DNA of 63,993 nucleotides, counting the filler, from Basidiobolus ranarum (taxonomy: Eukaryota), in NCBI GenBank assembly GCA_040143965.1. It is 4 parts of 4 records of this genome, joined end to end, with 100 filler letters (N's around TTAATTAATTAA, not from the genome) between each part and the next. Parts side by side here need not be neighbours in the genome. Positions count along the whole stretch, not along the records: positions 16,938 to 33,760 come from JASJQH010000329.1; 3 more parts are not named here. The stretch is one strand, 5' to 3'. The notes beneath the pieces were generated by a model. The model was not told the DNA's origin. It saw nothing but the letters and a program-made list of their open reading frames with translations, and ran no database searches. Positions within the stretch are counted from its first letter, which is position 1. Each line of letters opens with the position of its first letter. Shown here one piece after another: positions 1-54,184 of the stretch. A program made the translations under genes and the position numbers.

Positions 1-146
1 TGACAGACTAGGTTAAGGTTCCCTAGCAATATAGGCATAGCATACAAGGACTGGTAGCTCAGTGGTTAGAGCACCTTGCTAGAGTGAAGGAGGCCCCAGG
101 TTCAAATCCTGCCCAGACCAATATTTCTCCCTAAATAATTTCAACA
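1..146 (-). mobile_element. LTR-like terminus (TGTTGAAATTA on the minus strand) abutting copia pol sequence; contains the tRNA-like sequence
   Basis: 136-146 TAATTTCAACA is the reverse complement of the 11-nt terminus of the LTRs at 566 and 1185. Copia coding sequence follows to the right. Confidence 0.45.
48..120 (+). tRNA. Degenerate tRNA-like sequence (Ala-like body, AGA in the anticodon position, short variable loop); probable pseudogene or element-borne Pol III unit
   Basis: Folds as GGACTGG-TA-GCTCAGTGGTTAGAGC-A-CCTTG-CTAGAGT-GAAGG-AGGCC-CCAGG-TTCAAAT-CCTGC-CCAGACC-A. A box and B box are intact. One mismatch each in the acceptor, anticodon and T stems. Confidence 0.7.
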
Positions 147-1659: not shown

Positions 1660-1720
1660 TGCCTACTGCCGGGATTGAACTGGCGACCTTCGGTTTATGA
1701 GACTGAGGCGCTAAGCAGGC
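1660..1720 (-). pseudogene. tRNA-Met(CAT) pseudogene lacking the D arm
   Basis: Minus strand: GCCTGCT-TAGCGCC-TCAGT-CTCATAA-ACCGA-AGGTC-GCCAG-TTCAATC-CCGGC-AGTAGGC-A. The acceptor stem pairs and the anticodon is CAT. The D arm is missing and two stems have A:C mismatches. Confidence 0.75.
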
Positions 1721-4360: not shown

Positions 4361-7300
4361 ATGTCAGATAACATTTATGTTCATGTCAAAGAGCAACGGG
4401 CCAAACGTGAAACTCGTTTAAAAGAGCAACACAACTCTACACAAGTTTCCTTGGTTGGTTATAGCATACAACACTGAGTTACATGAAGGGTCAAATAAAT
4501 CTGCTGGTTATAAGAAAGGTATCCTCACAAGTCAAGTCGACAAAGAAGAACAGATAGGGAAGAAACCTAGAAGCTCAATATCTTTAAGCACTGCTCCCAA
4601 AAGAGTTTATGAAGAAATGGCAAACATTAGGGAGCATGAAGTAGATCCCTTTGAAATTCGTAAGGTAAGCAAAAAGATAGTTTATGAAGATGAGTATCAC
4701 ACTCGTAGATTCAACCGTATACTATCTTCTAAACGCGTTGATGCTTTTTCAAAGAATCACGACATAAACACTGAGGCTAGAAACTGTGCCAAGGCTAGGA
4801 AACAAGTAGAGCTTGAAAAAGAAGAACAAAGAATAAAAAGAAAGATTATCGAAAAAGCTAAAGAAGCTGAGAAAAATGGTCAAAAGCTTGAAACACTGCA
4901 GTCAACTGAGAGAAGCAATTGGGTTGTTGACGCGTACATAGCGGAAACTCGTTCTGAATGGGAAAAGCCAGACAAATGTGATGCTACTTTATGTACAAAA
5001 AATCTCTGGGACGAAGCCTCAGTGAGCAAGGCTTGGGATACAACTTTTCAGAGTAAAGTAACTGACACTCCAAGCGGAAAGTGTAGATCACGTTGGGATG
5101 AGACTCCTGTTAGTACTAATAGGTTTGGAGCTACTCCAGTTGGGAGTGGCGGGTCGATAACTCCCACATCTAATCAATTAGCCCAGCTGATGACCTCTGA
5201 AGTGACGAATGCACTAAGATATGAGGAGACTGATTTAAGAAATCGACCACTATCTGACGAAGAGTTGGACGCGATGTTTCCTTCAAATGGCTATAAAATT
5301 TTGGACCCACCGCCAAGCCATGTACCTATTCGAACTCCTGCACGTAAGTTGACGGCTACACCTAGCCCTATGGTTGGTATGAGTGGTTTTATGATCCAGG
5401 AAGATGATAGAAATCAAACATACGACTTACTCACCGAAATTCCTGGAATATGTAATCTACCCTTCTTCAAGCAAGAAGATATGCAACACTTTGGCAAGTT
5501 TCTCAATAATGTCGATGAAAGCCAAATGTCAGTTGAAGAGTTAAAGGAACGAAAGATCTTACATCTTTTGTTGAAAATCAAAACCGGTACCTCTCCAATT
5601 CGTAAGGCTGCTCTTCGTCAAATTACCGATAGAGCAAGTGAATTCGGTGCTGGACCTCTTTTCAATCAAATTCTTCCCTTGTTGATGTCGCCAACACTCG
5701 AGGACCAACAGCGTCATCTTCTGATTAAAATCATTGATCGCATTCTTTATAAACTAGATGATCTTGTCAGGCCATTTGTTCATAAGATCCTTGTAGTTAT
5801 TGAGCCTCTATTGATTGATGAAAATTACTACACCAGAGTTGAAGGCAGAGAAATCATTAGTAATCTTAGTAAAGCAGCAGGTTTGGCTACCATGATTGCC
5901 ACCATGAGACCGGACATTGATCATATTAATGAATATGTTCGTAACACCACTGCTCATGCATTTCCAGTCGTCGCTTCAGCACTTGGAATTTCATCTCTTT
6001 TGCCATTTTTAAAGGCTGTTTGTAAATCGAAGAAATATTGGCAAGCCCTTCATACTGGTATTAAAATTGTTCAACAAATCGCCATCCTTCTGGGAGGTGA
6101 TGGTAATTTTGATTCGAGAATTCCAGTCTCCTGACGAAGAAATGAAAAAGATTGTCCTTCAAGTAATCAAACAATATGCTTCCACTGATGGAGTGCAATC
6201 TCAATACATCAAAGCGAATATTCTTCCCGAGTTCTTCAAGAACTTTTGGGTCAGAAGGATGGCTCTTGATAGACGCAACTATAAGCAGTTAGTTGAAACA
6301 ACAGTTGAACTGGCTCAAAAGGTTGGTGTAACCGAGATTGTTGGCAGAGTTGTTGAAGATCTTAAGGATGAGTCAGAACCTTACAGGAAGATGGTTATGG
6401 AGGCCATTGAGAAGGTAATTAGTGTATTGGGAGCTGCAGATATTGATACTCATTTAGAGGAAATGCTGATCGATGGTATTCTTTATGCCTTTCAAGAACA
6501 GACAGTTGAAGATGTAGTCATGTTAAATAGATTTGGCACAATAGTCAGTGCTCTCGGTTTACGCGTTCAACACTATCTTCAGCAGATTTGCTCTACCATT
6601 CTTTGGCGCTTGAACAATAAATCGGCTAAAGTTAGACAGCAGGCAGCTGATCTGATTTCTCGTATTGCAATCGTTATGAAAACTTGCGGTGAGGAGAAAT
6701 TGATGAGCCGACTTGGTATTGTATTATATGAGCACCTTGGTGAAGAGTATCCAGAAGTACTTGGATCGATTCTAAGAGCCCTCAAGTCAATTGTGAATGT
6801 CATTGGTATGTCTAGTATAACTCCGCCAATTAAGGATTTATTACCACGTCTCACCCCCATTCTTCGAAATAGGCACGAAAAAGTACAAGAAAACTGTATC
6901 GATCTTGCTGGACGAATTGCCGACCGAGGTGCAGAATTTGTGAGTGCTCATGAATGGATACGGATTTGTTTTGAATTATTAGATTTACTTAATGCGCATA
7001 AAATAGGTATTCGTAGAGCAGCTGTCAATACATTTGGTTACATAGCCAAAGCTATAGGACCTCAGGACGTTTTAGCCGTTCTATTGAACAATTTGAAGGT
7101 TCAAGAACGACAGAATCGTGTGTGTACCACGATCGCTATTGCTATTGTTTCTGAGACTTGTGCGCCCTTTACTGTACTTCCTGGGCTGATGAACGAATAT
7201 CGTGTTCCGGAATTGAATGTCCAGAACGGTGTTCTTAAATCACTCTCTTGGGTATTTGAATACATTGGTGAGATGGGTAAGGATTATATCTACGCGATCA

Positions 7301-7707
7301 CACCTCTTCTTAAAGACGCGCTTGTTGATCGAGATCTTATTCATCGCCAAACCGCGTGTGCCACTATTAAGCACATGGCGTTGGGCGTGTATGGTTTGGG
7401 ATGCGAGGATGCGCTTCTTCATTTACTAAACCATGTATGGGCCAATATTTTCGAGACTTCCCCACATGTCATTAATGCAGTTATGAAAGCAATTGAAGGG
7501 TTGGGAGTGGCGTTAGGGCCGGCGACTATTCTCCAATATATATTACAAGGACTTTTTCATCCCGCCCGCAAAGTACGGGATGTATATTGGAAGATTTACA
7601 ATAGTGTTTACATGGGAGCACAAGACGCGCTCGTACCATTTTATCCAACAATTGAAGATGATGGAAGAAACCATTATCAACGCTGTGAAATGGATTATTT
7701 TATGTAA
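4361..7707 (+). pseudogene. SF3B1: Intronless, disrupted copy of splicing factor SF3B1/HSH155
   Basis: Contains [19 protein letters not shown] and the HEAT repeats ([17 protein letters not shown]). Frameshifts at about 4460 and 6095; the second coincides with a deletion of roughly 90 codons between QQIAILLG and [19 protein letters not shown]. Confidence 0.85.
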
Positions 7708-11762: not shown

Positions 11763-11835
11763 GGTCCTGTAGCTCAGTGGAAAGAGTGTCTCCCTCCGGA
11801 GGAGAAAGTCGTGGGTTCGACCCCCACCCGGATCG
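11763..11835 (+). tRNA. tRNA-Arg(CCG)
   Basis: GGTCCTG-TA-GCTC-AGTGGAAA-GAGT-G-TCTCC-CTCCGGA-GGAGA-AAGTC-GTGGG-TTCGACC-CCCAC-CCGGATC-G, followed by an oligo-T terminator. Confidence 0.93.
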
Positions 11836-16837: not shown

Positions 16838-16937
16838 NNNNNNNNNNNNNNNNNNNNNNNNNNNNNNNNNNNNNNNNNNNNTTAATTAATTAANNNNNNN
16901 NNNNNNNNNNNNNNNNNNNNNNNNNNNNNNNNNNNNN
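16838..16937. other. Artificial contig linker
   Basis: N44-TTAATTAATTAA-N44; the 12-mer gives stop codons in all six frames. Confidence 0.97.
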
Positions 16938-16985
16938 CTTGAGAAAGGAAGATGTGGTCGTCATCTTTACTCCCCCCCCCCCTCA
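16938..16985 (-). mobile_element. Possible PPT plus LTR start of another LTR retroelement at the contig edge
   Basis: Minus strand shows a long G-rich purine tract (GAGGG...GGAGTAAAGA) followed by TGACGACC. Confidence 0.3.
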
Positions 16986-17242
16986 ATTTCTACCAAATGA
17001 TTGAATCTAAATGTGGCAATAATAGCTACAAGTTTACCTGAAGCAGCTGAGATGCCTTGGGCTGTAAAATGGAGACACGTAGGGAAGTACCAAAGTTTTG
17101 AGTAAGCAGGGTGATAAACAATGCAATAGCTGTATCTCCAAGAAATTAAAAAATAGTACTTATTATGAAAACACCATTACAATACAACCAGCGGCAACCC
17201 TACAACTAACAACAATCCATGAGAATGAATAAAATATATGAT

Positions 17243-17337
17243 GTGAGTGATGGCATGAAAAGTGAGCAATGGCATGAAGAGTGAGTGATGGCATGAAAAG
17301 TGAGCAATGGCATGAAGAGTGAGTAATGGCATGAAAA
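17243..17337. repeat. Minisatellite, 5 x 19 bp with alternating (38-bp) higher-order structure
   Basis: GTGAGTGATGGCATGAAAA alternates with GTGAGCAATGGCATGAAGA. Confidence 0.95.
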
Positions 17338-17468
17338 TAAACTTGTATTCATTAGCATCTCCTTATTACAATATCAGAAAATGTTCCAAGAAATGAAAAG
17401 GATATTATTTATTTATTTTCATTTAACCGAATTCACTACAAAATCATGTACGATGCAAACTTGACGTC

Positions 17469-17966
17469 TTAACAATTGTAACAGTATTGAGCGTATTGGA
17501 ATACACTGCAACATGTACCACCGCAGTTATTTTGCACAGCCCATTGTCCACTCTGGCAAACTAGGAAATTGCTCCCAGAGCATCCATATCTACCATTAAC
17601 AAGACAATTTGCTCCTGGAGCTACTGTAGGGTCTGGCTGGTTGGATGTGGTTGTGGTAGAGGAGGTAGGCTCAGAAGTTGGCTTGGAGGTGGTCTTTGAT
17701 GTGGTGGACTTGGAAGTAGTTTTAGTAGTAGTTGGTTGGCTGTCGCAATTAGGGCAGAATGCTGCGTAAGCTGGGACACTACAGCAACTTCCAGAGCAAA
17801 TATTTTGCAAGAGCCACTTACTAGTAGAAGTTTGGCATGCGTAAAAGTTTTGACCTTCACAATAGTAGGAGGCACCGCTGTTTGAATTGCAAGGAGCTGA
17901 TGGAACAGCAGATACAACACCCAAGGTAGCTACGATGGTGCCAACGAGAATGTTAGAGGAATACAT
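17469..17966 (-). CDS. Small secreted Cys-rich protein with two CBM19-like chitin-binding modules and a Thr/Ser linker
   Basis: Signal peptide; two repeats of C..(G/A).Y.C.G.NF..CQ...W..QN.C.G.CCSV..YA..C.NC. Confidence 0.75.
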   Translation of the reverse strand: MYSSNILVGTIVATLGVVSAVPSAPCNSNSGASYYCEGQNFYACQTSTSKWLLQNICSGSCCSVPAYAAFCPNCDSQPTTTKTTSKSTTSKTTSKPTSEPTSSTTTTSNQPDPTVAPGANCLVNGRYGCSGSNFLVCQSGQWAVQNNCGGTCCSVFQYAQYCYNC

Positions 17967-18605
17967 TTCAGTTTAGTAGAGAGTGGAAGATGTATCGGTT
18001 AAAGTGTCGATATCGAATTGTCTGTTGTTTATCTGGTTTATATTGACAACAGAAAATCGAGTGTTCTGCTTGTTTATGGCTTTTTGCACCTACACTTACC
18101 TCTGGCTTTTCTCAATTTCTGGATTTAGTGCTACCAGGACAGCGCCTTTGTGATATAAAGCTGATGTTTATTTTTAGTATCAAGAATGTTAGATTAATCA
18201 GTAAAAATAGGAGACACATCTTCAGCCTAGAATATTTAGCCAAGTCAAATGAAACTTCTCCGACAATCAACCTGACTCTGAATTTAAAAAGTACTGAGGA
18301 AGGGGGAGTCACATTTGGCAACACGTGGGAAAGATGTCTCTTCACAAGCGTTCATACATAGGTTTATGTGAAATAAATCAAAGCACCAACATAAAGTATT
18401 GCTAGTTGTGTAATATCGGTGGCGTCGATTGAAATGTTATTTTTGATGAGCCTGTTCTAGTCACTGGTGGCTAGGATAAATCTACGACTGTAAAGCGAGA
18501 TAATATTCATAACCAAGAATCTCTACGGAAAGTTGAGAGATTACTGGGAGGCAACAAGAATGCATGGAATTTATTTATCTTGGCATAGGTTAACATCACT
18601 AATAC

Positions 18606-19910
18606 TCAAGTAGCATTACGTTGCCGGAATTTTAAGCCCCAGGCAACACCTAAAGGTGCAATAAATGTGCATACTATAATAGCCCAAACTGTGACAACAA
18701 ATGCACTATTTCCCATCATTCCATTTTTTACACTTTCACTAGCCATGACCAAGCCGATTTCTCCCCGAGCTATCATGGCTATATCTACGACTACTCCATC
18801 CGGTATTGTTGGCTTCACCCACATACCAGCCAAAAATTTGGTTATAGCCATCGCCAAGGTATAGATCGCTGCATTTCCAAAATTTTCTGGATTGAAAAGG
18901 GATGAAACGGGTACGATGAATCCAATAGATGAGAAGAAAATCGGTGTTGTCCAAGTCATGATTGGGTGAACATGACTATGAAAAAGGACATTTGGAAGTG
19001 AATATGGGGCAAATATGAATCCTGCTACAAAAGCTCCAAGAAGTTCTGAGCTGCCCAGTATTTCAGCAAGAACTGAAAATACAAGTCCAACTACTAGAAT
19101 CAAGAGTAGAATAGCGCGATGAAGGAACCCATTTGATAGTAAAAATACTTTGAGTCGATACGTATAGGAATGTTGTTTATCATCGGCCCAATTGGAAGTA
19201 TTTGTTGGACTACTGGGATAAGTATTAGGCAATGTATCCTTCTCTAAAGTTGAAAGTTCGGGAAAGTTTCTAGTGAAGGAACTTGCTGCGAGTTTTAATC
19301 CAAAGAAACACCCGAAAGCTAGTAGAATGAATCCCACTGAAACCACAAATGGACGAGCTATTAACCAAGGCTGTACTGTATCATGAGTACCCTTCATAAT
19401 AGGGCCAATCTCTTTCATCACCGCAAGAATTATTAAACTAAAGACATCGTCTAATAGTGCAGCAATCGTGATGAGTACGCCAAAAGGAGTCTTCGTTATA
19501 CCTTGCTGACTTAAAAGCATTATTATGATTCCAATAGAGGTACTTGCCAATGAAGCAGAAGATATGACCGCTTCGAGTAAGCTAAATTTAAAGAGAAAGT
19601 GGCACACCAAAGTACCTACTCCGAAAGGTAACAAGGTTCCAGTCAATGCGATAAGCAATGCTTGAGAAAAAGCACCTCTAACATGAGAAAGTTCAATACC
19701 CATGCCACCTTCGAATACTAACAGAAGCATTCCAAGTTTTCCTATCAAAGTAAAAACCTCTACGAGAAAAGTAGGCAGCATATTTTTCCAAGCTACCAAA
19801 ACGATTCCAACAAGTAAATGTCCAATTAAATCAGCATAGAGTAACGAAAAAAGTTTTCCCGAGAGATATAAGATGAATAGGTATAGTGAAATGGTGATTA
19901 GAGACAACAT
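18606..19910 (-). CDS. CPA2/Kef-type Na+(K+)/H+ antiporter, intronless
   Basis: Many TM helices; motifs LLLVFEGG, ASTSIG, IAALLDDV, LLGAFVAG, PIFFSSIG, ITKFLAG and MIARGEIG. Confidence 0.88.
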   Translation of the reverse strand: MLSLITISLYLFILYLSGKLFSLLYADLIGHLLVGIVLVAWKNMLPTFLVEVFTLIGKLGMLLLVFEGGMGIELSHVRGAFSQALLIALTGTLLPFGVGTLVCHFLFKFSLLEAVISSASLASTSIGIIIMLLSQQGITKTPFGVLITIAALLDDVFSLIILAVMKEIGPIMKGTHDTVQPWLIARPFVVSVGFILLAFGCFFGLKLAASSFTRNFPELSTLEKDTLPNTYPSSPTNTSNWADDKQHSYTYRLKVFLLSNGFLHRAILLLILVVGLVFSVLAEILGSSELLGAFVAGFIFAPYSLPNVLFHSHVHPIMTWTTPIFFSSIGFIVPVSSLFNPENFGNAAIYTLAMAITKFLAGMWVKPTIPDGVVVDIAMIARGEIGLVMASESVKNGMMGNSAFVVTVWAIIVCTFIAPLGVAWGLKFRQRNAT

Positions 19911-20132
19911 GATTCATGATTGTAAGACTTCAGAATATTGAGTGGTAAAGTAGGTTCTAAGGTACTGTTAGCTCAATTGGAGAATAAATTTGTCGTTGAA
20001 CTTTATTTTCTCACGTGTCGAGTTTAAGGTTCTTATTTGCTGAACCAATGTAAATGATTCCTAATTTAGGTATGGACAATAATAGTAGATGGATATAAGT
20101 TACAGCTTTATGAATTTTGTCTATATATTTGA

Positions 20133-22236
20133 CTAAGTTGAGAACCGGAAATCCAGACGATTATTCCCTCTATCTTTGGTTGTATCCAGGTAGTGTTGGC
20201 GCTCTTCATTAGTCATAGCATTCCAGATCTTGTCACGTTTGTTGTTGACATAAATGTAATAGGCTCGTAATGCAAGGAATAGGATGCAGGCAACTATTGT
20301 AGATTAGTAATGAAGTCGATCAAGGTGGCTATATCAAGGTGGCTATAAAAATACTTACTGGTTAACAGTCCAATATTGATCCAGTTACCCCGGTGAAAAC
20401 GAGGTTGGTCATCTGTGCGGTAGATTTGGGATCCTGGTACGCCAGCAATATTAGCAGCGGCGATGATGGCACCCATCGCCAATGACCGTTTACCCATTGG
20501 TGCCATATTCTCAGTAACCCAGGCCACTTGCAAAGCATGCCACGTGTAGGCAGCCAAAGTGATGATAACCACCACATAGAGTCCCCATTTGTTAGTGTTA
20601 TCGGGAAGTACTTGCAAGCAGATGTAACCGATGATGGCCAGAAGGATTTGCGCAACACAGTGGAGTGAGCGATGTCCATGTTTATCACTGTAATAATTAT
20701 GGAGGACTGATATTATTAGAGTTAAAATATATGCTGGAACTGTAAGGGCATTGCTTGTGTAAGTGTCAAAGCCTAAACTTTTGATGATCGAAGGGCTAAG
20801 GAATAAAGGTTAGTGTTGAGTGGGCATTGATTGAGTGGGTATTGATTGTAATTATAATCGACTAACGTGTAGGTTGTAATGGTATGAATTGATGTCCTAA
20901 GTTGATTGATTAGATTAGTGGATTTACATTAACAAACGCAAGTATTCCAACTTACATATCAAGAACGCAAATGATCCACTAGATTCGGAGATTTGGGAGT
21001 AATTGAAAGATTAGAATTAAGACCAGGGATTGAGCTTGCGTAGGATCACTTACATGGGTCCACAGCTTAAAATCAGTTATGGTTTCTCGGACATCCAACC
21101 AAGTTATTGGTTGGGACTGCTCTGCTTTGGCCGGATCATCTCTAATCAATCGAGTGACAAGGATTTGAGCTTCACGTTCGGTAAACCAAGGTTTATGTCC
21201 TCTTAACAGTCCCTTGGTTTTTAAAGGAGTTATGGGCAAATAAAGGGCAGTAAGTACGGCGACTAGGTTCGTAAGTACACCATCAATAAGAAAAAGCCAT
21301 TTCCATCCCCTGTAATTATTTAGTTCACATCTTTACAAAAATATGGTATGGTAAATGATTATTTACTCTAATCCGGCGATACCAGCCATTTGAAGAATTC
21401 CAAAAGACATGATACTTGATATCGCACTGGCGAGAGATTGAAAACCCCAAAACCAGGCCAAACGAGTACCTAGTTCGTGGGTTTTATAGAAGGAGGACTA
21501 AGCCCAAGTGAAAATGAGTGGGAATTCGATCGGAAGAATAGGCAACTTTGAACAAACCATGTAGAAGAGACAAGCAGGGATAAAGCCAGCCTCAGTAGCA
21601 GCTAAGAAAACTCGAACCGACAGATATCCACTTAAACTAAGTAAATGTTAGTAGTGTTCCAATCAGATTTTATGAAGAAATATACTTGTGAATAAGAGCA
21701 TGACACCAGGTAACAATTCCCCAGGTAAACTAGGTTTCGAAGTAAGCATCTTTGAGAAAGAGCTGGAAGGGTCAATAATTTGCGAGAATATATACCATTA
21801 GGAACGAGATCCAGTAAGGAGTTTCCCATTTTTTTGCGGCAATATTGGAAGGAAAAGCGAAGATGGTGAATACAATACTGAATAGCAGGGTGCCGGTGTT
21901 AATTTCATTGATGGTTATTCCAAGATCGTGTGGCATGTTGTCGGTTAGTGCATTAGCTAAATTCCAATGCAAACATAATTAATATCGAAAGAATTGATGG
22001 CAAATCTGGTAAGACTTACACAAGTTGGTACGATCAATGTTTAAGATAAAAGTAGTAAGCAGGATCCAAGGAAAAAGTCTAGTGTCCAGGATTCTCACGA
22101 GTCTCTTTTCCTCGCTCTCTGTCCACTTGAGATTAGGCTCGTACCCTTCCACCTCGACACTAGGACCTTTGACATGGCCGATCTTCTCTTCTCCAAACTG
22201 TGAATGATCAAACTCAAGAACCACTTTCTCTGACAT
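20133..22236 (-). CDS. MFS transporter, Dal5/allantoate permease (anion:cation symporter) family; multi-exon with 23-nt and 30-nt micro-exons
   Basis: LNIDRTNLSNALTD, LAATEAGFIP, GWKWLFLIDG and QIYRTDDQPRF; GT-AG introns traced in frame. Confidence 0.9.
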
Positions 22237-23084
22237 AATATATTACCTAATGATGATTGTCAAGTAGATGCTCTTTTATAAGTTTTAAGCTTCATTAACG
22301 TCATTTTTCGAAGTTATTGTGAGTTTTTTGGCAATATCAGGTCATCAAACACATCTTGCCTGGCTGTTTCTAGTCAACAAAATGACGCTTTCATGGTAGC
22401 TCTTAGAATCCCAAAGTGGCCTTGGACTGATGATGCCATTTCCACCAGTATTTCCACCATTGATGATTAATATCTGTCCGTATCTCGGGCACTACGTAGG
22501 ACAGAACTTATTTCAGTCACATTCTCCAGTTTACCAGTATTGGTCGTCCTCTTAATGCACTGCCAATTAGGATTCGTCTTCACAAGCAATACTGGCAACA
22601 TATTGTCTCATCCATGCTCATACTAGGTCTATATACTTACTACATCCTCTTCCCCTCTGACTCGTCGTAAACACGTAGATCGGACTTGACTGTCACATGG
22701 AACTTTTATTGCTTTTATATCTAGATGTCGCTTAGTCAAGCAATCCTGTGTGGTTATCGTAACACTAAACATTTGATCCAGAGTAAGTCTTTGAACACTT
22801 TTTCTTTTGGCAAGTGTCTACAAAAAGAATTGCCATTGTTTAATTTGTTTGTTCACTTATCTAACTATGTAGCCTTGTTACTGTTTATTTTTGGATCTAT
22901 ATATGATTTCATTTGGTGTGAGAGGGGCTCTACCTAATTTCTGAATAAAATTCTTCCTTTTTCCATTTGAACTAGCTGAAATTGATCACATAGGAGAGAT
23001 GGAGTGTTCAGTGGATTTTCTAATTCACTCACACTGTAATTCACTTAGTTATATTGTGACTCTGTTTAAAGAACAATAGAATGC

Positions 23085-26000
23085 TTATTTCGATGCCTGT
23101 TCAATACCTAAGATTGGGAATAGATTGTGAAGTCGATTTCTCTTCCCAGGATTGAGCTCCAACAGGTATCTTTTAAGTGGTTCTTTGAGCGACTCGCATT
23201 TGACGAGAACATCCTGGAGTTGATTCTTGGGCAATTGAATGAGGACTGAGAAGGATGTCGGTTGGGTGAGCTATATAACAAGAAGTCAGTATGGTTTGGT
23301 AGAGTCGTTGGAGGAGATTTCAATGCAACCGAACAATAGTCACCTTACAGCACCGAATGAACCCATCCCAAAGCTTGGGGGAGTTCCATATCTTTTTGGT
23401 GATCAGACGAGATAATAAGCTGTTGATGAATCCAGTGAGATTCTTGTGTAGAGAAACACTTTGCATGACCTGGTTTACAATTACTATTAGTGGGTTGTGC
23501 GTGGGATTCATCATACTCAAAAAACCACATACAGTTCGCATGAATAGTGTAGGGATCTTGGGTTGATCCACCAACTGCTGAAGCACTACCGCCAGCACCT
23601 CTGAAGTGAAAATCTCTGGAAGGGAAAAGCAGATTTGTGTAGCTGCGAATTCACCAGGCTATTAATATTGCTAATCCAAAACATCTTTGTAGCATGTCAA
23701 AATGTATACCTTCAACGGCTCGCTTTAAACCGATCGTCTCTTCCATATTATGCAAAGCAACTAAAAGCTCGGAAGGACTAATTTGAGAACGACCCGAGTT
23801 ATTCGTCGCCTCCTCTTCTGAAGTACTAATGAGCTTCAACATGACCTCTTTAACAACCTTTCTCTCACCTTCAGTATTATTTAGTAGACATATGATATTG
23901 GGTAGAAACTTGAATGCCTCTTCCTGTTGTTTGGATTAAAAATGAATTTCGTATGATGAGGATATATTGGACAACCCACTAACCTTCTCTAAACCAGGCA
24001 TGATAGGAATGAGGAACCGTGCGTCTAACTCACGTTGAGTATACACCGCTTTTACAGCACTAACTAGTTGTGGGGATGGCTTGGCTAAGGAGGGTTAATG
24101 GCAACAGCGTTACAATGTATTCAAAGCTCATCAATTTCTCATCAAAAATTACCTTTATCCGTCAAGATCACCAATATCCGGAGCACCAAAGTTTCACCAC
24201 CTTCGTGGAAATTCCGAATAGTATTTAGAAGTTTGGTGGAATTCATGCCTATTGATTTGATCAAAGGGTATATCTCTTGTCTAATAACTTTCCGTACATT
24301 TTCCGATGTTTTTGTGTACACTGTAAAGAGCCTGTAGAGTAAATATGTAAATACCAAGCTTCTTCATAACTAAATTGCCTCCCTTCACTTACTCCTTCAA
24401 AAAATCCGGGTTTTTGGTGCATAACGCAAAAAAGAGCTCCAAGTGGCGAACGATATCCTGTTCAAGCTTCTGTTGATCTTTAGCGCTTTCAACAACAGAG
24501 GTATTCATGTCTGTATCGATTTGCTCGATATCAGCAACCTCAGCTGCATCAACAATATCCTCCGGGTCATCGTTGTTTGTGTCAAACGACATGTCAGATA
24601 ACGATTGAAGTGATTCTAGCGCAAAAGCTTCAATCTTTGCTGTAATATTAACATGATCGGGCACCCACTTCTTAACTGTTACAATTGCTGGGGATCTAGT
24701 CGATCTTTCTTTATGAATGCAATACGATAACAAAATCTCTAAACAAACATCTCGAATAGGAGGTCGCAGGTTAGTAAGATCGCGCAATAATGCTAGCCCC
24801 ATTAATAACCTCTGTGCATCATCACAACATATCTTGACCATAGAAGCCGCATGCTCAGTAACCTCGGGAATGTCCAAGAAAAACTTGGTTAATATCCGAT
24901 CCTTGGCATCAACCGTTGGGATGCAACAGTCCAAAAGGCGATGAAGCCATTTCGGATACTGCGGCTCCCATGTAAACTTTTTACTCATCAAAGCATCATT
25001 GTACCATTCTTCTTGGAGCCATAGAGCAGCCAATTCGTGTCTGGCTCTGAAGTTTTCGGCTATGAAATTACAAAGAGTTTCACGCAGTTGATCCTTGTAA
25101 CTTTCAAGCTGCTTATGATCTTCCTCCTGGGAGGCACCATCAACAAATGGGACTCCTCTCGCGACTAGTCTTGCAACTATCGACATCCAGTCTCCAAAGT
25201 TATCCTCGCCTGCTCGTTTTGTTGTAGCCAAGTGAGACCCTGCAGGTCCAATCAGTGTGGACTCTGTTTGTAGAATCCGATTTAAAGCGTCTTTGGCCAT
25301 ATCTTGGTATTGCTCATTATTATAAAGTATAGGAGCACCTAGTTCGTATGGCTTCGACTCAAGTGATCGATCATACTCCCTTCTATCCGAAGGTTGATCA
25401 TCCTGCTGAATAAATCTATTAACTCAAGGTCTTCTCATAGTTCATGCATAACAACAAACACTCACTTCGTTATGTTCTAATTTAAGTGGTTCACTTTCTT
25501 CTTTTTTAACCGAGACATCCACGTCCATACTATCAGGGATGGCTGATCTTAATTCATTTTTTATGGGAATGTCAGTGAGTTCATTATCAGGAAGATGTGA
25601 TACAGTGGAGGTGGCTTCGTGCGACATAGGCTGAGGCATATTCGCTACACCAGAATCATATGTGTCCTGTGGGATTGCAGCATGATTCTGGGGTTCTTTG
25701 AGAGCATTACTTGGTCTAATTCTTGGATCCTGGATTTTTGACTGCAACCTTGGGTCACGAGCATGTGTTTCAGGAGGATTGGGAATTTCTTTACGAAATC
25801 TAGGATCTCGGCTTTGGCTCTCTTGAGGTAAGGCATTGTATTCCGAAGATTCGGATATTCTCTCCCGCATTTTGGAGGCATCAGCAAGCTCATTCTCTCT
25901 GGCCTGAACCCTCGGGTCCCGAACTCGTGGATCCTTAGAAGCAAGAGCACCAGTTGAGGGGCCATCTTTCATATTTCTACTTTCACGGGTTAAGCTTGAG

Positions 26001-27849
26001 AGAGATTCAACTCTTCGCATTCTCTAAATTGTGAGGAGATATCCATTAGTGACATTCTACCGCATGTACATTCGAAGCAAACGCTCTGTATATCAAATGC
26101 CACAAGCCTTTGAAATATTGATACTAGCTATTATGATAGTACTGCAAAGAAGTAGATATTTACCACAAGTGCTTGATCGAAATCAGTCTGGGATATATCC
26201 TGGAGCGTTGTGATGATGGCACCAACAACAGAGTCTATTGGGAATTGAGTAACGTCGATTTTGTCTAGAACATGTAAGAAAATTGTCAAGGAAATACACA
26301 ACCACAATACGATACGATACTAAATGGTAATTTTGGGGGTAAAAAGGATATCTTGTGGTATTGTTAATCCTTCAGATTTTGCCTTGGCGTACTCCGCCGG
26401 CTTATAGCTAGTACTGGGAGTAGCAGCGGGTGCTGGTCTCGATTTCTTAGCAACCCCTGACTTATCAGAGCTACTGGTGGAGCTATGGGCTCTCTTACTG
26501 GATTGTCTGGACTCATGAGCGGCCTGTTGCTGTTGCAATTTCGCCATTCTAGCTTGAAAGTGAGCCACTTCACGCTTTGCTCCGATAGCAAGTAAAGCAT
26601 CTATAACATATTTTTGATAGGCAGAAGAAAGTTTTGACCTACAGGGTATATGGGTTTTAGTAACGACGGTGTTGAAACACTCTCTTATGTATCCGTACCT
26701 CATTAAGCCTAAAAGTTGATTCCTAATAGAACGTTCTACGAATCTCTTTTGAATTGACCTGAGATTTCCTGTTGGAGTTCTGTGCCAACTCTCAAAGGCA
26801 GGCACAACTCGTGGAATGAATTCAGGGCGCGACCTCATAAGCAGCGCTAAACAGTTAATGATTGCAGTAATGGCGCCACTAGACCTTTAAAGTGAAACAC
26901 GTAAGACGATGCTACTCAATTAAACATCAACATATTGATTTATGAATGTACATTGAAGGCGAAAATAGCAGTGATATGAAAGTGTTTAGATGGGAAAGTC
27001 CCTCCTCTTCCAGTTGTTGTTTGTTCAGGAATGGGTGTGAAGAAGGGCAAATATCCAGCGAGATCTCCTGGGTATTGCTTGACTACAATGATGAAATACT
27101 CTTAATAAAGCCATGGATATGTTTAAATCAAACAAGGCTTTATGACAAATTACCTTCTTTTCTCTACTATCTACAGATTGCACAGTGAGTACTACGTGCA
27201 TAAACTTGATAACGTTTATCTTTATTCCATCATTTTTAGACTCAAGCATTGCAGTGATTTTGGATTTTAGCTCAACAATAGACTTCCACGTATCCTGTTC
27301 TGTTGGATTTGTACACCTAAAAAACAGTCAAGGTATCAGAACTTTAGTATTTTCCTCTGAATGGGAATCCCCCAAAAAATAAAGTTTGAGATAACTCTTC
27401 ACGTAAATTGAGGGAATCGAACTCACATTCGCTTGAACACAATTGGGTACAGATTTGCGCTAGCTTGTATAACAGTCTTTACAACAATCACTGCTGTATC
27501 ATTCAATAAGGGCAATAATGTATCAGCCGCCAGTTTCAACACTAATTCCAACGAACAAAAAAGTTAAGGCATAATAATGTCCACAGTGAGGTTAAAAACC
27601 AAAGAAAACAAGAATATGGAATAGGATACAATCTGGATGAGCTTCTCCTGAATATCTAACTACACTGATCAAAAAGTTAACAACCCACTGACGAATCTCC
27701 GGAACTTTCTCAAAAATAAGGGTATATGTCATGGGGAACAGAGAAGCAAGTTGCTCCGAGTCCTCTTTGACAAACTCCCGAAATTCCTCCAAAAGGCGAA
27801 GCTTTTCCTTTGGATCGACCTCCGTGAGTGCTGTTTGGAGTTTATCCAT
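23085..27849 (-). CDS. PTA1: Symplekin/Pta1, scaffold of pre-mRNA 3'-end processing; multi-exon, including U12-type introns
   Basis: ELAALWLQEEWYND, HLELFFALCTKNP, ISPSELLVALH, LFMRTVMQS and LWDGFIRCCK; exons traced by eye. Confidence 0.92.
26274..26351 (-). other. U12-type AT-AC intron (78 nt)
   Basis: 5' ATATCCTTT, branch TTTCCTTGAC about 12 nt from the 3' TTAC; splicing restores the frame PQ-D-VLDKIDVTQFP. Confidence 0.9.
27542..27629 (-). other. Probable U12-type GT-AG intron (88 nt)
   Basis: 5' GTATCCTAT, branch GCCTTAAC about 22 nt from the AG; frame restored (HPD-L-LKLAAD). Confidence 0.65.
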
Positions 27850-28557
27850 TTTGAAGTGACTTGATGACAAGTCAGAAAAAGGTGATTTTTAAGCTACGAA
27901 CAACGCGAATAATTGAATTTGGTGGATAGACAATCATCTGCCTAGAGAATTAGTAGACGATTTTGAATCTGGTGAGATCACCAGTTCTGAACTGATCAAA
28001 TCCTTAGTCAGTCTAGAATGAGTTGATTTAGATTTCAAGTCAATGGATTCTGTGGACTAAGCATACATTTACCCACTCAGCCTTTACATTTGCTCACCTT
28101 TCCGGCGGAGTTGTTAGGAAGGTGGTTAGTACAAATGTCAATATATGAGCTAACTGCCCTACTTGATACACACGATATTGTTATTGTTATGTTAGGGTTC
28201 ACTTTTGAAGGTTAAGCAAATGTGATTTCTGAAACACTAAATCAATGCTAGTATATGTTCATGCATAATTTCTAGATTAGGATAAGCCCTTTGAAAGTCG
28301 AATTTTTTTTCATTTTTTTTCGTTCAATAATTACCATGCATACAATATACCAAACACACTGAGAAGCATAGTGTTGTGGGCTTGAATTCAAAGCAATATA
28401 GATATTGACATTTCCAGCTGAACTCTGGCTCCTCAAAACCAACCAAACAGCCTTTGATAAAAACCAAACGAACAATAGTCTTTCAAGCCTATTTTTGAAA
28501 CTTTCTACGAAATCAAACCAGTGGAATTTTGCTCGATAAATAAGTGGATTCATTCAA

Positions 28558-30796
28558 ATGTCAGTCACAGTCGTTCGTCTTTGTCGGGATGTATTACGTG
28601 AGGATTTTGGTCCTGTAGTTGAAGTATTTCTTTTTCATAATAGTTATTCCTCTTTTTTACAGTCACATTGATTCTGTTTGATTAAACTTCAATAGAGAGT
28701 CGGTACTATCCTAGTAAAAAAAGGAAGATTGCCATTAAACCAGATCAAAGTACTGGCCAAAGTTTCCCTCCGCCAAGTTCGGGAGAGTCTGTTAATTTTA
28801 ATTCAGCATCACCTGGTCTATCACGCTGATACCGGGGAGACAGGGGCCACCTTTACATATTACGAGGCGAATGTGGATGAGATATTGGCTCGACTTCGTA
28901 TCGGACTTATTATAAACAGTGCAAACGAATGGTTTGGAAAAGAGGTATTTTAAACAACGATACATTATCTTGGTTGGATGATTGAGCTAAGATTTTATTA
29001 TGGTGATAATTTGTAGGGTGGAGTGATTATTCGCCTACTTTTAAGTCGAGGAATGTTACGTTTGAAGGATTTACGAGTTGAGCTCGAGTTAGATAAAGGA
29101 AAAATCAACAGTAAGTAACGCCTCTGCAAGTTCCAATACTCTCTACAGACCGACTTGTTCATATCCCTAAATACCGATCTTCTCCATTTTCAGAAAGTGT
29201 CCTATTCACTAAAATATTCACTCAGATGGCGCGCGGTCGCTATATCCGAGCAATCACTCCTTTAGACAAGATCTCTCCTACAGATAGACACATATCTGAA
29301 CAGGCTAAAGAAATAGAGCAATTCAAGTCACCCCCAACCGCCCAAGAACTCGCTGCCCTTAAGAGAGTTCGTGAGGAGAAGGAGGTTGCGGAAATCAACA
29401 GTAGCGTGATCCCCGGAATGGTATGTAATAGTTTTTAATGTACTGGTTCTAATTACATGACGATTTACCTTTGAGCACCTATCTGTATAGAAACGTAAAT
29501 TGACTGACGCTGATACGGGCCCAAATAAAGTATTTCCTTTCTCATATCACTTCAAGGGATTTGTAAATAGAGGCTCACATTTTGATAACAGAAAATGAAT
29601 TTGGACGCAGAGGCGGTAGAGGAAGTTGATGTAAGCTATCATATAGAAGTCTCATCTATTAATGACTTTTAGTCACATTTTTCGTTTTATAGCAAGACGT
29701 ATATTGGAAGATCAATTATGAACAGTTCAACCTTAAGCTCCGTAATAAGGTGGGTAGCATGATGTTTGGATATGAAAATATCGATGATTTCTCACAATCT
29801 ATTACTATTTAGAGTATCATTCGCTTTGTGGATGATCGTATTAACAAGGGAGCTGCTGCCGTCATGAAGGCCGCTTTCACTGTTGTCGAGGATCGTATGC
29901 GACAATGCAAGGAAGAGAAATCAGGTAATTTTAGTTAATAATCACTAGTAGACAGCTTCGTTTGGCATTTAACTTGCTTGGTTAATTCTAGTTGTTATGT
30001 CGGCTACACTAATTACTCACAACCTTCCATCTGAAATCAACCTACAAAACGATATCATTATGGACATCGAAGGATCCAATTTCAAACCTACACAACAACA
30101 ACTAACAAATGAACTACTCGATCTTCTCTGTAATGATCACGTCAAATTCATGACTAAAGAGGATGAAAGAGGCTCCGGACAATATCGTATCAATCTCGAA
30201 AAGATTGCTGAAGCATTAAAGATACGTTTAGTAGAATCCGTTGTTTCCGAAAAGTTCGGCTCAGTAAGCGCAAGGTTAATGCGTATTTTAATGAGCAAGC
30301 AAAAATTAGATGAGAAACAGGTAGGTAGTTTTTATAAGCTTATTGAGAAGCTCTTGAGTGATCTAACACAGTGATTCCTTTGATTTGAAAATCGTAGGTC
30401 GCCAAAATCGCCATGGTTCCTGGAAAAGATGCTCGCGAGAAACTTCATCAACTAGCAACCGCTGGTTTACTTGAGGTTCAGGAAGTACCAAAGTCTGCTG
30501 ACAGAGCGCCATCTCGCACCTTCTACCTTTGGCATGTCCCTATGAAAAGGTGCCAAGAGGTGATCTTGGAAGACTGTTACAAAGCATTAGCTAGCATTCG
30601 TCAACGTCGCAATGAGGAGATCAAGATGCGCTCTAGATTACTCGAAAAGACACAAAGAGAGGATGTCAAGGCAAATCAGGATCTTTTGAACGCTTCTGAC
30701 AAAGCACAACTAGAGTTGTTGAATAAAGTTTTGGATTGGTTGGAGGTGGCTGAATTACGTCTTGATGAGATGGCTATGATTCTGCGAGACTACTAG
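28558..30796 (+). CDS. RPC82: RNA polymerase III subunit RPC3/RPC82, multi-exon
   Basis: LREDFGPVVE, ESLLILIQHHLV, EKFGSVSARLMRIL..KLDEKQ and QEVPKSADRAPSRTFYLW. Confidence 0.93.
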
Positions 30797-31275
30797 ATTT
30801 TCATTCGTTCCATTGTCACCATTCCCCCTCCCTTCCCCTCCTCCTCCACATAGCACCCTACCTCATAACATTCCTCTTTCTGTTTGTTCACAAGATTTAT
30901 CAATCTTATGGATACCAAAAGAAGCACACCTTAGTCTGTATTTCTTAGTTAATTGATTTCTTGTAGTCACATTTCCTTCAGCTAACATCGAACCAAACAT
31001 TACTTGTTTTTGGAGTAACGAGTAATGAATAATAAACAATCAAAAGAATATCAATCGACATGGTTTGATGTTGGGTTTATTTGGAGTCTCGAATACACAT
31101 TACATTGAGAAACGAGAGATATGTGAAATATAAGGAAGTTAAGAATAGGTGGAGATAAAGCTTGCGTATTCTGGAAATACTCCTAGGGGTTTTGGTTTCC
31201 CTTGGATCATATGACTGAAATGGAAAGCTTGATGTTAATACAAGTTACTGCTGTTCTTTTTGGTCATTTGATCAA

Positions 31276-32720
31276 TCAACAAACGGAGGTGGAGTTGGCT
31301 AATGGGTAAGTTTGCTCACTACTTGGTTGTTGACTAATTTCACAATACGCTGAAAATTGTTCTCGAAGGCTACAACGCGAGGCAAAGTTCTGAGAAAGAT
31401 CTGGTCCTCGAGGCTGTCTGATTGGGCAAATCAGGGGTAGGCCATCGACACGCTTGTAGCTTTGTCTGAATGGGGATCGAGAAGTGTGCGCGGCAATCCC
31501 AGTTAACTCGGAATTGCTTCTGACGGAAGACCTGTTAAATCCTGCAGCATTACTGGGTGAACCGTTGCTATTAAGCGGCTTCTTAGTTGTCTTGGGAATA
31601 CTAAGTGAGGAGACAGAGCTGGGGGCACCCTTGCGAGAAATTCTCATATGCCAGTTCTCTTCTTCACCATCACATTTGAAAGACATTCCAAGTTTCTGCA
31701 CAATCATCTGGAGTAGGTTTCTTTGATACTGATTGAGCGAATTCAAATAAACCAAGTCATGGTTACCTTGCTCTTCGCGGAATGCGACTAGTTCTTCATA
31801 AAAAGTACGAGTCTCAGGGTCACTCAGGTCAATACCTTCAGGTGATTCCACTTTAGCTTTGTTACGCTTCTCCGATTTCATTTTTTCACTTTTCTTACTC
31901 TTGTCCCTAGGTAAGTTCTCAGGTCTCTCTTCTTTTTCTCGTTGTAAAATTTTTACTGGTTTTTCCGACTTTTTGGATTTCTCTTTGACTTCCTTATCGG
32001 AAGAGGATTGAGTTTCTTCAAAGAAGCCTTTTTCCACAAATTCGTTTAGAGGCTCGTTATTGAATCCTAGCATCACACGCTTATACTCAACCTTCAGTTT
32101 TCGACCTCCTATATCAAAGCCATTCAACGTGGAAATCACATAGTCGGTTTCTTCGGGAGTTTTGAAATTTGCAAAGGCGAGTCCTCTGAATACCCCATTA
32201 TCGTAATGATAATTGAAAGCATATGGCTTGGGGATATCCAATTCAACCTAAATTCATCCCAATTATTAGTGATTTTCCTGGATATTTATTACAAGGGAAT
32301 AGCATACCATAGACTTGAGAAGAGCATCTCTTTTAATAGAAAAAGGGATATTCTTGATAACCACAGCGGTGGTAACAATATCACCGACAAGGGGATCGGT
32401 CTCAACATGGTTCTGATCATAACGTGGCTAAATAAAAGGGTTTAGTTTAGTCCATAAAAAGTGGGAAGAGTAACAACCAAACTTACCTTTGGCTTACGCT
32501 TCTCTTTTCCATTGTTACCGTTCTTGGCACCCTTTCTTCTTCCACCTTTGCTTTTTTCAGCAGCACTTCCAGTTTCTTTATCAGTGGTAACTGGAGAATC
32601 AGTACCTTCACTACTACTAGAGTCAAGGTTCTCCAGTTCACGAGCTGGAAAGTGTTCATTAGCATTAAGACACTCGGCAGTAAGGTTGCTAACTTCGTTC
32701 TTCATAGGTTGTCCGTTCAT
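31276..32720 (-). CDS. RRM + R3H RNA-binding protein (Pin4/Cip2-like), 2 introns
   Basis: TAVVIKNIPF, PYAFNYHYDNGVFRGLAFANF, GRKLKVEYKR, R3H-like L..YQR.LL..IVQKLGM and PIRQPRGPD. Confidence 0.85.
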
Positions 32721-33155
32721 TATGAGTTTATGAGTAGAAGAAAGTCAAGTTTACTTGTATTATAAACGAATAAGTGTCAAAAAAAAGCGGGGGAGAAAGT
32801 ATTGTTTTATTGAAGGAAGACAAAGAAATTACTAAAGCTTTGAAAGGCTTCGGAAAGGGTATCGAAGAATAGGAGCGAATAGAAAGTTTCCGTTGGAAAC
32901 GACTTTAGGAGCGAAAGAAGAGTACCAAGTTTACTTCATTTCTATTATCTCTATTAAATACTCAATTTCCTCTTCACTTTTCTTGACAAATTTCATTGTA
33001 ACCTAACCCTTATTGTTCTCTATACTATTAACATTTAACTCTAAACTTCTTCAATTTAGCCAATGATCTTTCACCAAACGATCAGTGCGCATCAAAACAG
33101 TCTAAGAGCTCTCATGACACTTGGAATTTTCTAGACTTGAGGGCATACATGGTGG

Positions 33156-33225
33156 ATATATTGAGTTATATATTGCGTATATATTGATTTATTGCGTATA
33201 TGTTGATTTATTGCGTATATATTGA
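33156..33225. repeat. Minisatellite, about 3 x 19 bp
   Basis: TATTGCGTATATATTGATT repeated in the divergent intergenic region. Confidence 0.85.
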
Positions 33226-33448
33226 ATACTAGTTTTAGGAAGCAAAATTCATTTAGCTTGATTTTTCTGCTGTGATTGATGACAGATTATGAATTATGTT
33301 AGCCATAGGAGTGAGAATGCTGATTTATTAATGATTGATTTGTTTTACATGATTTATGAAGAATCTGTAATGAAATATTTATTCCGAAATAATGTTAGCC
33401 AGAGAACACTTCCACTATCTCTGGCTACTAGACATTGACCAAATACAG

Positions 33449-33760
33449 GATGCAAAGTAGTATCTTGGACAGTTCACCTAAGGTTGACTTCAAGTCATTA
33501 AAAGTACGAGAGATACGGGGACATAAGGATAAAGTTCACACTGTTAGTTGGAATTGTGATGGTAGACGGTTAGCCTCTGGTTCAGTAGATCGTACCGCAC
33601 GTATATGGAATCCTGAACGTTCGGTATTTAATTTTAGTAACACTTGAATACGCTACAATGTAGAGACTTGGAAGTGTAAACACCGAATTCATGCAAGAAT
33701 CTTTACCGATCTGATATCTTTTTGTTGATTTAGACTGATTCTCGATATTCAGTTGAACTT
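33449..33760 (+). CDS. TEX1: THO/TREX WD40 subunit THOC3/Tex1, 5' part only (contig end)
   Basis: REIRGHKDKVHTVSWNCDGRRLASGSVDRTARIW, then an intron, then TDSRYSVEL. Confidence 0.8.
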
Positions 33761-33860
33761 NNNNNNNNNNNNNNNNNNNNNNNNNNNNNNNNNNNNNNNN
33801 NNNNTTAATTAATTAANNNNNNNNNNNNNNNNNNNNNNNNNNNNNNNNNNNNNNNNNNNN
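33761..33860. other. Artificial contig linker
   Basis: N44-TTAATTAATTAA-N44. Confidence 0.97.
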
Positions 33861-50622: not shown

Positions 50623-50722
50623 NNNNNNNNNNNNNNNNNNNNNNNNNNNNNNNNNNNNNNNNNNNNTTAATTAATTAANNNNNNNNNNNNNNNNNNNNNN
50701 NNNNNNNNNNNNNNNNNNNNNN
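50623..50722. other. Artificial contig linker
   Basis: N44-TTAATTAATTAA-N44. Confidence 0.97.
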
Positions 50723-52593: not shown

Positions 52594-54184
52594 ATCCTTG
52601 GTACGTAGATTGATATTGATTGGAGATTAAATATGATTGAGAAAGATATTAGAGAGGGTTAAAGGCAGACTTCGGGTAAAGGAGGGCTGGTTGTTCAAGG
52701 TTAACACCCTGTGCTGATATTATGAAATAGATAAAAGCAGGAAAAGTGAGAGACATGGCCTACAAATATAAGCAAGTGGAATGGGCAAATGTCATCAACA
52801 TTGGTTAAGAGAGTAACACTAAATCTAATCACCCTTATTTGCTTTCATACTGAGTTGTGAGGACGAAATTTCGTCATTCATAGGATCTAATCTCATTGTC
52901 ATTGATTATTGAAACTATTGTTACACAACTGGCATGTTGGTTTTTCGAGTTTAATGTTAATGAGCTCACATTTGACGAATGCTGTGCTTTTTATTGGCTA
53001 GTAAGGTCATTCATCTATACCTTTTAAAGAAGGAAACGGGTATAACCCGGAAAATGAACAGCTTGGTAATATATGTACAGTATTTCAAATTTGACTTTTG
53101 ACGCCATTTTCTGAGTTGTCTGTTTACTTAACAGTTTCTACCGTTAAATAGTAATTAACATCTATAATGGTTTGACTAGAAAGGGGTCACCCGATGTTGC
53201 GAATGACCTGGCAATCATTCTAAAGTCAACGATCAAGGATATCTTGTTCTCAGGCTCTTTAGCTGTATATTTACTGTAAAGCCAAAAAGTTAATTGCGTC
53301 TTTATTTTTTACATGTTGGCGAATATCGGTTGGCTCGTGTGCTGCCTTCAGTATATTGCGATGTCTTTAAAAGTCAATTAATATCCATACGTATCAAGGT
53401 ACTGGAAGTGGGCTTTTGTATAATACTATTTTACTGGGGCTGCGACACAAATAAAACCTATTATAGTACCACATCAAAGCCTAATACAACGGAGTTGAAT
53501 AGCACCCTCAAACTGCATTCTTGGGTGCAATTATTTGATCTCTCGGTATCGTGAGAGAAGCGATATACGATTCCTTAGGGATTCTAAATTCTTTGAATCG
53601 ATATCCCACTTGACAAGTTACGATCAAGCCTTGGTTCTTTTAGGTTAAAACTGTATCTCTAGAGTTGATTCCAAGATATACAGGCCTGAGAGGATGTTTT
53701 CAGATAATCTATTTACTTTCATAGAAAGACCACGTCTTCGCAAAAGAAACGTTCTCCAATTATCTTGAATCAAAGATTTTCATTCAATCTCTGTGGAACA
53801 TTTCGTTCCAATGTGCAGATTTTCCGTTCAATCCTAGAAGCAGGATATAGAGTAGTCACTGCGTTAATGGTATCTTCGGAGTTTGGGAATATGGACGCTT
53901 TTGCAGCCTCGTGTTTGTTAACCAATACAGCGCGTCCAATCATTGCTCAAATTTGCAACCCTAAATTTATCCAATATTGAGGTAGTATTATTATTCTCAT
54001 TTAACTATTGAGACATTTCAGTTAAAATATTGTTTAGTTTTTTAAATGAGGCATACTAAATCATGACTGGATGCATTTAACGCGTTATTCAAATCATACT
54101 TTTTCGATTTGATTCAATTTTGTAAACCGTTTGTTTACTTTCAAATGGTTGTCTACTCGACCTTTGTCCTTTAACCATTAACTA

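Follow-up and report, generated by a model that had tools for sequence, protein, structure and literature searches.

An AT-AC intron of the U12 type very probably interrupts the symplekin/Pta1 gene of Basidiobolus ranarum at 26351..26274 on the minus strand, judging from its splice-site and branch-point motifs. It is the sixth of 14 introns in what looks like a single-copy gene. The public annotation of this gene is cut into two proteins exactly at the intron. The intron is 78 nt long, lies in phase 1 and was read base by base in the window, by which we mean the whole stretch of DNA analysed (63,993 nt). A preliminary description of this DNA had proposed such an intron, with an in-frame TAG inside it and a TIPQ-D join across it, and we found all of this base for base at the proposed coordinates. 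It also bears every sequence hallmark of an AT-AC U12-type intron, with matching 5′ and branch motifs, a distance of 12 nt from the branch A to the intron end, and AT-AC termini (Table 1).

Table 1. Features of the B. ranarum symplekin gene and of its introns 1, 2 and 6; positions count along the window.
Feature	Position	Strand	Remarks
Symplekin/Pta1 coding region	23085..27849	-	15 exons and 14 introns; 1232 aa plus stop
Exon 6	26352..26638	-	End of the N-terminal domain and Ser/Ala/Lys-rich linker
Predicted AT-AC intron (intron 6)	26351..26274	-	
5′ splice site ATATCCTTT	26343..26351	-	Every position agrees with the known U12-type consensus
Branch-point sequence TTCCTTGAC	26285..26293	-	Agrees with TTCCTTRAC
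Putative branch A	26286	-	12 nt to the last intron base, C 26274; within the range of ~10-15 nt
3′ terminal AC	26274..26275	-	Read from the sequence
In-frame TAG within the intron	26320..26322	-	Stop for the unspliced reading; protein ending ...TIPQDILFTPKITI
Exon 7 (VLDKIDVTQFPIDSVVGAIITTLQDISQTDFDQALV)	26164..26273	-	In neither public gene model; block conserved in symplekins
Intron 1	27542..27629	-	GT-AG, phase 1, 88 nt; 5′ end GTATCCTAT; GCCTTAAC 22 nt from AG
Intron 2	27317..27426	-	110 nt; U2-like GTGAGT 5′ end; U12-like branch motif ACCTTGAC 11 nt from AG

On the minus strand, the layout of the intron is G/ATATCCTTTTT...TTTCCTTGAC-AATTTTCTTAC/ATG, which reads with its codons as ...ACA ATA CCA CAA G/ATATCCTTTTTACCCCC...GTGTATTTCCTTGACAATTTTCTTAC/ATGTTCTAGAC... 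The upstream exon ends in ...CCA CAA G at 26352 and the first bases of the intron, ATATCCTTTTT, start at 26351; the intron ends in ...TTTCCTTGACAATTTTCTTAC at 26274, and the downstream exon opens with ATGTTCTAGAC at 26273. The stop-to-stop ORF 26320..26886 enters the intron and ends at its TAG, and the excision of the 78 nt leads to an in-frame ...TIPQ-D-VLDKIDVTQFPIDSVV in phase 1. Since boundaries shifted downstream by 1 or 2 nt (TA-CA and AT-AT, respectively) give an identical mRNA, the position of the intron cannot be fixed to the base from the sequence, and AT-AC is the sole option with recognised termini among these three equivalent boundaries. U12-type introns are characterised by the 5′ consensus /ATATCCTT and the branch consensus TTCCTTRAC, and the window holds no strict U12 signal other than 26351..26274.

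We then examined the gene in which this signal lies. The 15 exons, when joined, give 3699 nt, which encode 1232 aa and contain a single stop codon, the terminal one. The Pfam domain SYMPK_PTA1_N (PF11935) was matched by the translations of two upstream exons above the curated cut-off (E 2.6e-14 and 4.2e-11), and Symplekin_C (PF12295) was matched by the translations of downstream exons (E 1.3e-29 and 2.6e-08), in agreement with the symplekin/Pta1 identity that had been proposed. As the N-terminal domain is matched upstream and the C-terminal domain downstream of 26351..26274, a single gene must cross this interval. The sequences encoded by the exons are the same as those of B. ranarum proteins, which bears out the early-diverging fungus named as the source. 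The divergent neighbour of symplekin, at 28696-30793 on the plus strand, is the RNA polymerase III subunit gene RPC82/RPC3 (PF05645, PF22536 and PF20912 on two exons).

Using the upstream exon as a query, we found two proteins, K7432_006997 of B. ranarum (P0001, described below) and K493DRAFT_310239 of B. meristosporus CBS 931.73 (P0002, 1173 aa, UniRef name Symplekin). The model is collinear with P0002 over its full length and identical to it at 75.9% (935/1232 columns). At the join, P0002 reads TIPQDVLDKLDVTQ and is gapless across the predicted junction; the longer stretch that spans the join is ...GHTIPQDVLDKLDVTQLPLDPLVDAIITTLQ... Relatives numbered 2048 at E <= 0.001, and the model was aligned with P0002 and 40 further symplekins of 950-1350 aa, taken in order of id from 149 other proteins (P0004-P0152). 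In this alignment, exon 7 falls on a conserved block, (F/I)D-VT-(L/F)P...VV..I...L, in the 41 other full-length symplekins. A search of metagenome contigs for a relative of the large exon gave 22 pattern matches, none of which was confirmed, and among 551 candidate short protein fragments across the junction (shorter proteins, with P0002 residues 335-470 as the query) none was found at E <= 0.001.

The junction was also located blindly, that is, regardless of terminal dinucleotides. In each of the 14 gaps that separate ungapped tblastn blocks, all in-frame, stop-free joins were enumerated and scored by a global alignment to the corresponding part of P0002. At the gap that holds the AT-AC intron, there were 4963 such joins, and the top score (143) went to 26351..26274 with AT-AC termini, tied with the TA-CA and AT-AT shifts that encode the same protein. 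A separate run, anchored differently, also ranked the AT-AC join as the best, of 4699 joins (score 238). A GT-AG alternative at this gap was rejected, with only 3 candidates among the 4963 in-frame, stop-free joins and a top score for these of 54 compared to 143 for AT-AC. The other 13 introns of the model are all GT-AG; a GT-AG join was the best or tied-best at 12 of the 13 remaining gaps, the exception being the gap 25465..25406, with a score of 114 for the top GT-AG join and 119 for the top join of any kind. Hence, by blind join scoring, the predicted 26352-26273 junction is the one that the B. meristosporus ortholog requires.

AT-AG is a known, rare boundary of minor introns, and the optimum distance for the choice of the 3′ site in U12-type introns is about 11-13 nt. 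The same U12-type intron could be spliced, mainly or in part, to the AG at 26266-26265 (AT-AG, 87 nt), which would remove Val-Leu-Asp from the protein, and the resulting join is indeed in frame and stop-free, with a score of 211 compared to 238 for the AC join. AT-AG is not among the canonical terminal pairs GT-AG, GC-AG and AT-AC named in the available excerpt of Larue & Roy 2023 (PMC10639083). However, the distance from the branch A to this AG is 21 nt, compared to 12 nt for the AC, and the ortholog P0002 keeps VLD, which makes the use of this AG very unlikely.

The public gene models bear directly on the AT-AC intron. The B. ranarum 'hypothetical protein' K7432_006997 (P0001, 377 aa) is identical over its first 368 aa to residues 1-368 of our model, and its last 9 aa (ILFTPKITI) are translated intron, ending at the intron TAG. 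The whole of the B. ranarum protein K7432_006996 (P0003, 827 aa) corresponds to the last 827 aa of the model, its start being the first Met encoded in exon 8. Between them, 37 aa (exon 7 plus one Arg; VLDKIDVTQFPIDSVVGAIITTLQDISQTDFDQALVR) are absent from both public models. K7432_006997 and K7432_006996 are thus halves of one symplekin gene, cut exactly at the AT-AC intron, as was to be expected from the earlier prediction that gene finders restricted to GT-AG would mis-annotate this gene. Since our model equals the two public ones outside the 37 aa, the 13 other introns that we placed agree with an independent annotation.

Taken at face value, the same two models could mean that nothing is spliced here and that two real proteins exist as annotated, a 377-aa N-terminal one and an 827-aa C-terminal one. 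We regard this as exceedingly improbable. Although it matches K7432_006997 and K7432_006996 as deposited, the two entries lie next to each other and are collinear with the single 1173-aa ortholog P0002, and the residues between them are open, in frame once the AT-AC intron is taken out, and conserved among symplekins. In addition, the start of K7432_006996 is merely the first available Met of its exon, the 9-aa tail of K7432_006997 has no counterpart in P0002, and most of the best 150 of the 2048 relatives are about 1000 aa or longer.

We next compared the signals of the AT-AC intron with chance expectation. The 5′ motif RTATCCTT by itself is common by chance: the window has 9 matches where 6.4 ± 2.5 are expected, and at least 9 turn up in 21 of 100 shuffles. 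The other 8 RTATCCTT sites in the window are without a TCCTTRAY-type branch motif at a plausible place. The full signal was defined as the 5′ motif followed, within 200 nt, by TCCTTRAY and by a matching AC or AG 10-15 nt past the branch A. It occurs once in the window. In 300 windows simulated with a first-order Markov model, the average was 0.027 per window, and 2.7% of these windows contained at least one; for a looser version, with lengths of up to 600 nt and distances of 8-21, the expectation is 0.17 per window. These simulated counts ignore position, while the signal in the gene is located exactly at the ORF break, where the ortholog demands a join. A relaxed U12 match elsewhere (53373-53848, 476 nt) is weak at both ends and is best explained by chance, since the relaxed pattern has 3 matches in the window against 2.1 expected. 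A short tandem array with units like TTCATGCCATTGCTCACT was observed on the minus strand at ~17250-17400, downstream of a chance ATATCCTT.

In rare cases, AT-AC introns are of the U2 type, and such introns are not known to carry the ATATCCTT and TTCCTTRAC signals. Together with the ambiguity of the boundary by 1-2 nt, this leaves some room for the major (U2-type) spliceosome as the machinery that takes out the AT-AC intron, or for a look-alike that arose by chance and is removed through unrecognised non-canonical sites. Yet both signals are perfect here and correctly spaced, and the genus has published minor introns as well as minor snRNAs, according to the excerpts available of PMC10639083 and PMC11347168, so that we give this explanation hardly any weight.

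For the AT-AC intron of symplekin, a mechanism can be derived from the accepted model of minor splicing, which proceeds by the binding of U11 and then of U6atac at the 5′ motif and of U12 at the branch motif, with the 3′ site chosen by a short distance from the branch. On this model, the U11 snRNP, and later U6atac, would pair with ATATCCTT at the 5′ end of the intron, and U12 would pair with TTCCTTGAC, bulging the branch A. The 3′ site would be set by distance, with the AC 12 nt downstream of the branch A being favoured over the AG at 21 nt. With exons 6 and 7 joined in phase 1, a GAT (Asp) codon would arise and a single 1232-aa symplekin would result. Retention of the intron would expose the in-frame TAG, and so would lead either to a protein truncated after the N-terminal HEAT domain or to a transcript with a premature stop. 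We infer that the intron is spliced in vivo and that its removal depends on the minor spliceosome. The further suggestion that the intron gates the expression of symplekin finds no support, as nothing in the sequence points to regulation.

Two other introns of the gene carry U12-like features. The boundaries of intron 1 are the unique best join of the blind scoring, and its 5′ end departs sharply from those of the other 12 GT-AG introns (GTGAGT, GTAAGT, GTAATT, GTATGT and similar). On its motifs, intron 1 is probably a minor intron of the GT-AG subtype. This assignment is tempered by the longer branch distance and by the TTAAC, which also fits a major branch site. The relaxed pattern is not enriched in the window (3 matches against 2.1 expected); what speaks for intron 1 is that the pattern coincides with intron ends that were verified. 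In intron 2, the U12-like branch motif behind a U2-like 5′ site may be due to chance, or may be the trace of a former minor intron, that is, of a minor-to-major conversion. The combined reading, in which the symplekin of Basidiobolus has two minor introns (intron 1, GT-AG, with GTATCCTAT...GCCTTAAC, and intron 6, AT-AC) next to an intron 2 with a U12-like branch behind a U2-like 5′ site, is unlikely as a whole. If it were true, and if other eukaryotes had no minor intron at these positions, it would point to a lineage-specific gain, or to a minor-to-major conversion caught in one gene.

The window consists of four separate contigs (16,837, 16,823, 16,762 and 13,271 nt), strung together with synthetic spacers of the form N44-TTAATTAATTAA-N44 at 16838-16937, 33761-33860 and 50623-50722, and gene neighbourhood across the spacers is therefore meaningless; the symplekin gene lies wholly inside the second piece (16938-33760). 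Within the 64-kb window, no minor snRNA was found, as an Rfam search at the gathering score and at E <= 1 gave only three tRNA genes, at 48-120 (plus strand, 56.2 bits), 1660-1720 (minus strand, 50.9 bits) and 11763-11835 (plus strand, 37.7 bits). Of the 36 long ORFs in the window, 4 are symplekin ORFs covered by the domain search above; a Pfam scan of the remaining 32 gave no protein specific to the minor spliceosome. Two long overlapping ORFs at 4422-7704 on the plus strand belong to an SF3b1 gene (Pfam SF3b1, E 6.7e-35, plus HEAT repeats). The SF3b1 product is common to both spliceosomes, and its gene is for this reason uninformative on the minor one.

Minor introns are already on record for the genus, and the following figures are those given in the excerpts available of the two papers. 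B. meristosporus has 249 minor introns, the highest density in fungi, in one count (Larue & Roy 2023, PMC10639083) and 237 in another (Olthof et al. 2024, PMC11347168), which amounts to a share of about 0.5% of all its introns (Larue & Roy 2023, PMC10639083; Olthof et al. 2024, PMC11347168). At this share, one or two minor introns per 64-kb window are about as many as expected. Olthof et al. 2024 (PMC11347168) found U11, U12 and U6atac in zoopagomycote fungi and, for B. meristosporus, describe a divergent and putative U4atac. By analogy with these B. meristosporus data, the minor-spliceosome machinery is presumably present in the B. ranarum genome as well. The phase of the AT-AC intron fits the published phase bias of minor introns, which is 1 > 2 > 0 (Larue & Roy 2023, PMC10639083). 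Among other fungi, 205 minor introns are cited for Rhizophagus irregularis, about 20 for Phycomyces and about 4 for Rhizopus, and, as far as the excerpt goes, no minor intron in Ascomycota or Basidiomycota was judged convincing (PMC10639083).

Compared with the classic U12-type AT-AC introns of animals and plants, the B. ranarum intron shares the ATATCCTT 5′ site, TTCCTTRAC, the short 12-nt spacing and the AC end, and likewise phase 1 and a place in an old housekeeping gene. No signal differs, and the B. ranarum intron is short (78 nt), like the neighbouring major introns of 60-140 nt. The minor introns of B. meristosporus belong to the same genus and are of the same kind, and P0002, as far as its protein sequence tells, shares the exon-exon junction; unlike that set, the symplekin intron of B. 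ranarum was missed by the deposited gene models. Rhizophagus irregularis, Phycomyces and Rhizopus, as far as the excerpted text describes them, are likewise early-diverging fungi that have retained the minor spliceosome, whereas Basidiobolus is in a different phylum, Zoopagomycota. A literature search returned no paper that links SYMPK with a minor intron, and, by title and abstract, none on a symplekin intron among the papers that mention symplekin and the U12 type.

In summary, the AT-AC intron of the B. ranarum symplekin gene is an instance of a phenomenon already published for the genus, and the known distribution of minor spliceosomes is unchanged by it. As the genus was already published as rich in minor introns, what is new is limited to an unannotated member of this class and to a split public gene model. 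The same split is likely at other AT-AC introns in the B. ranarum annotation, which would make minor-intron counts taken from such annotations too low. The symplekin intron itself provides a clean and checkable example of minor splicing in Zoopagomycota.
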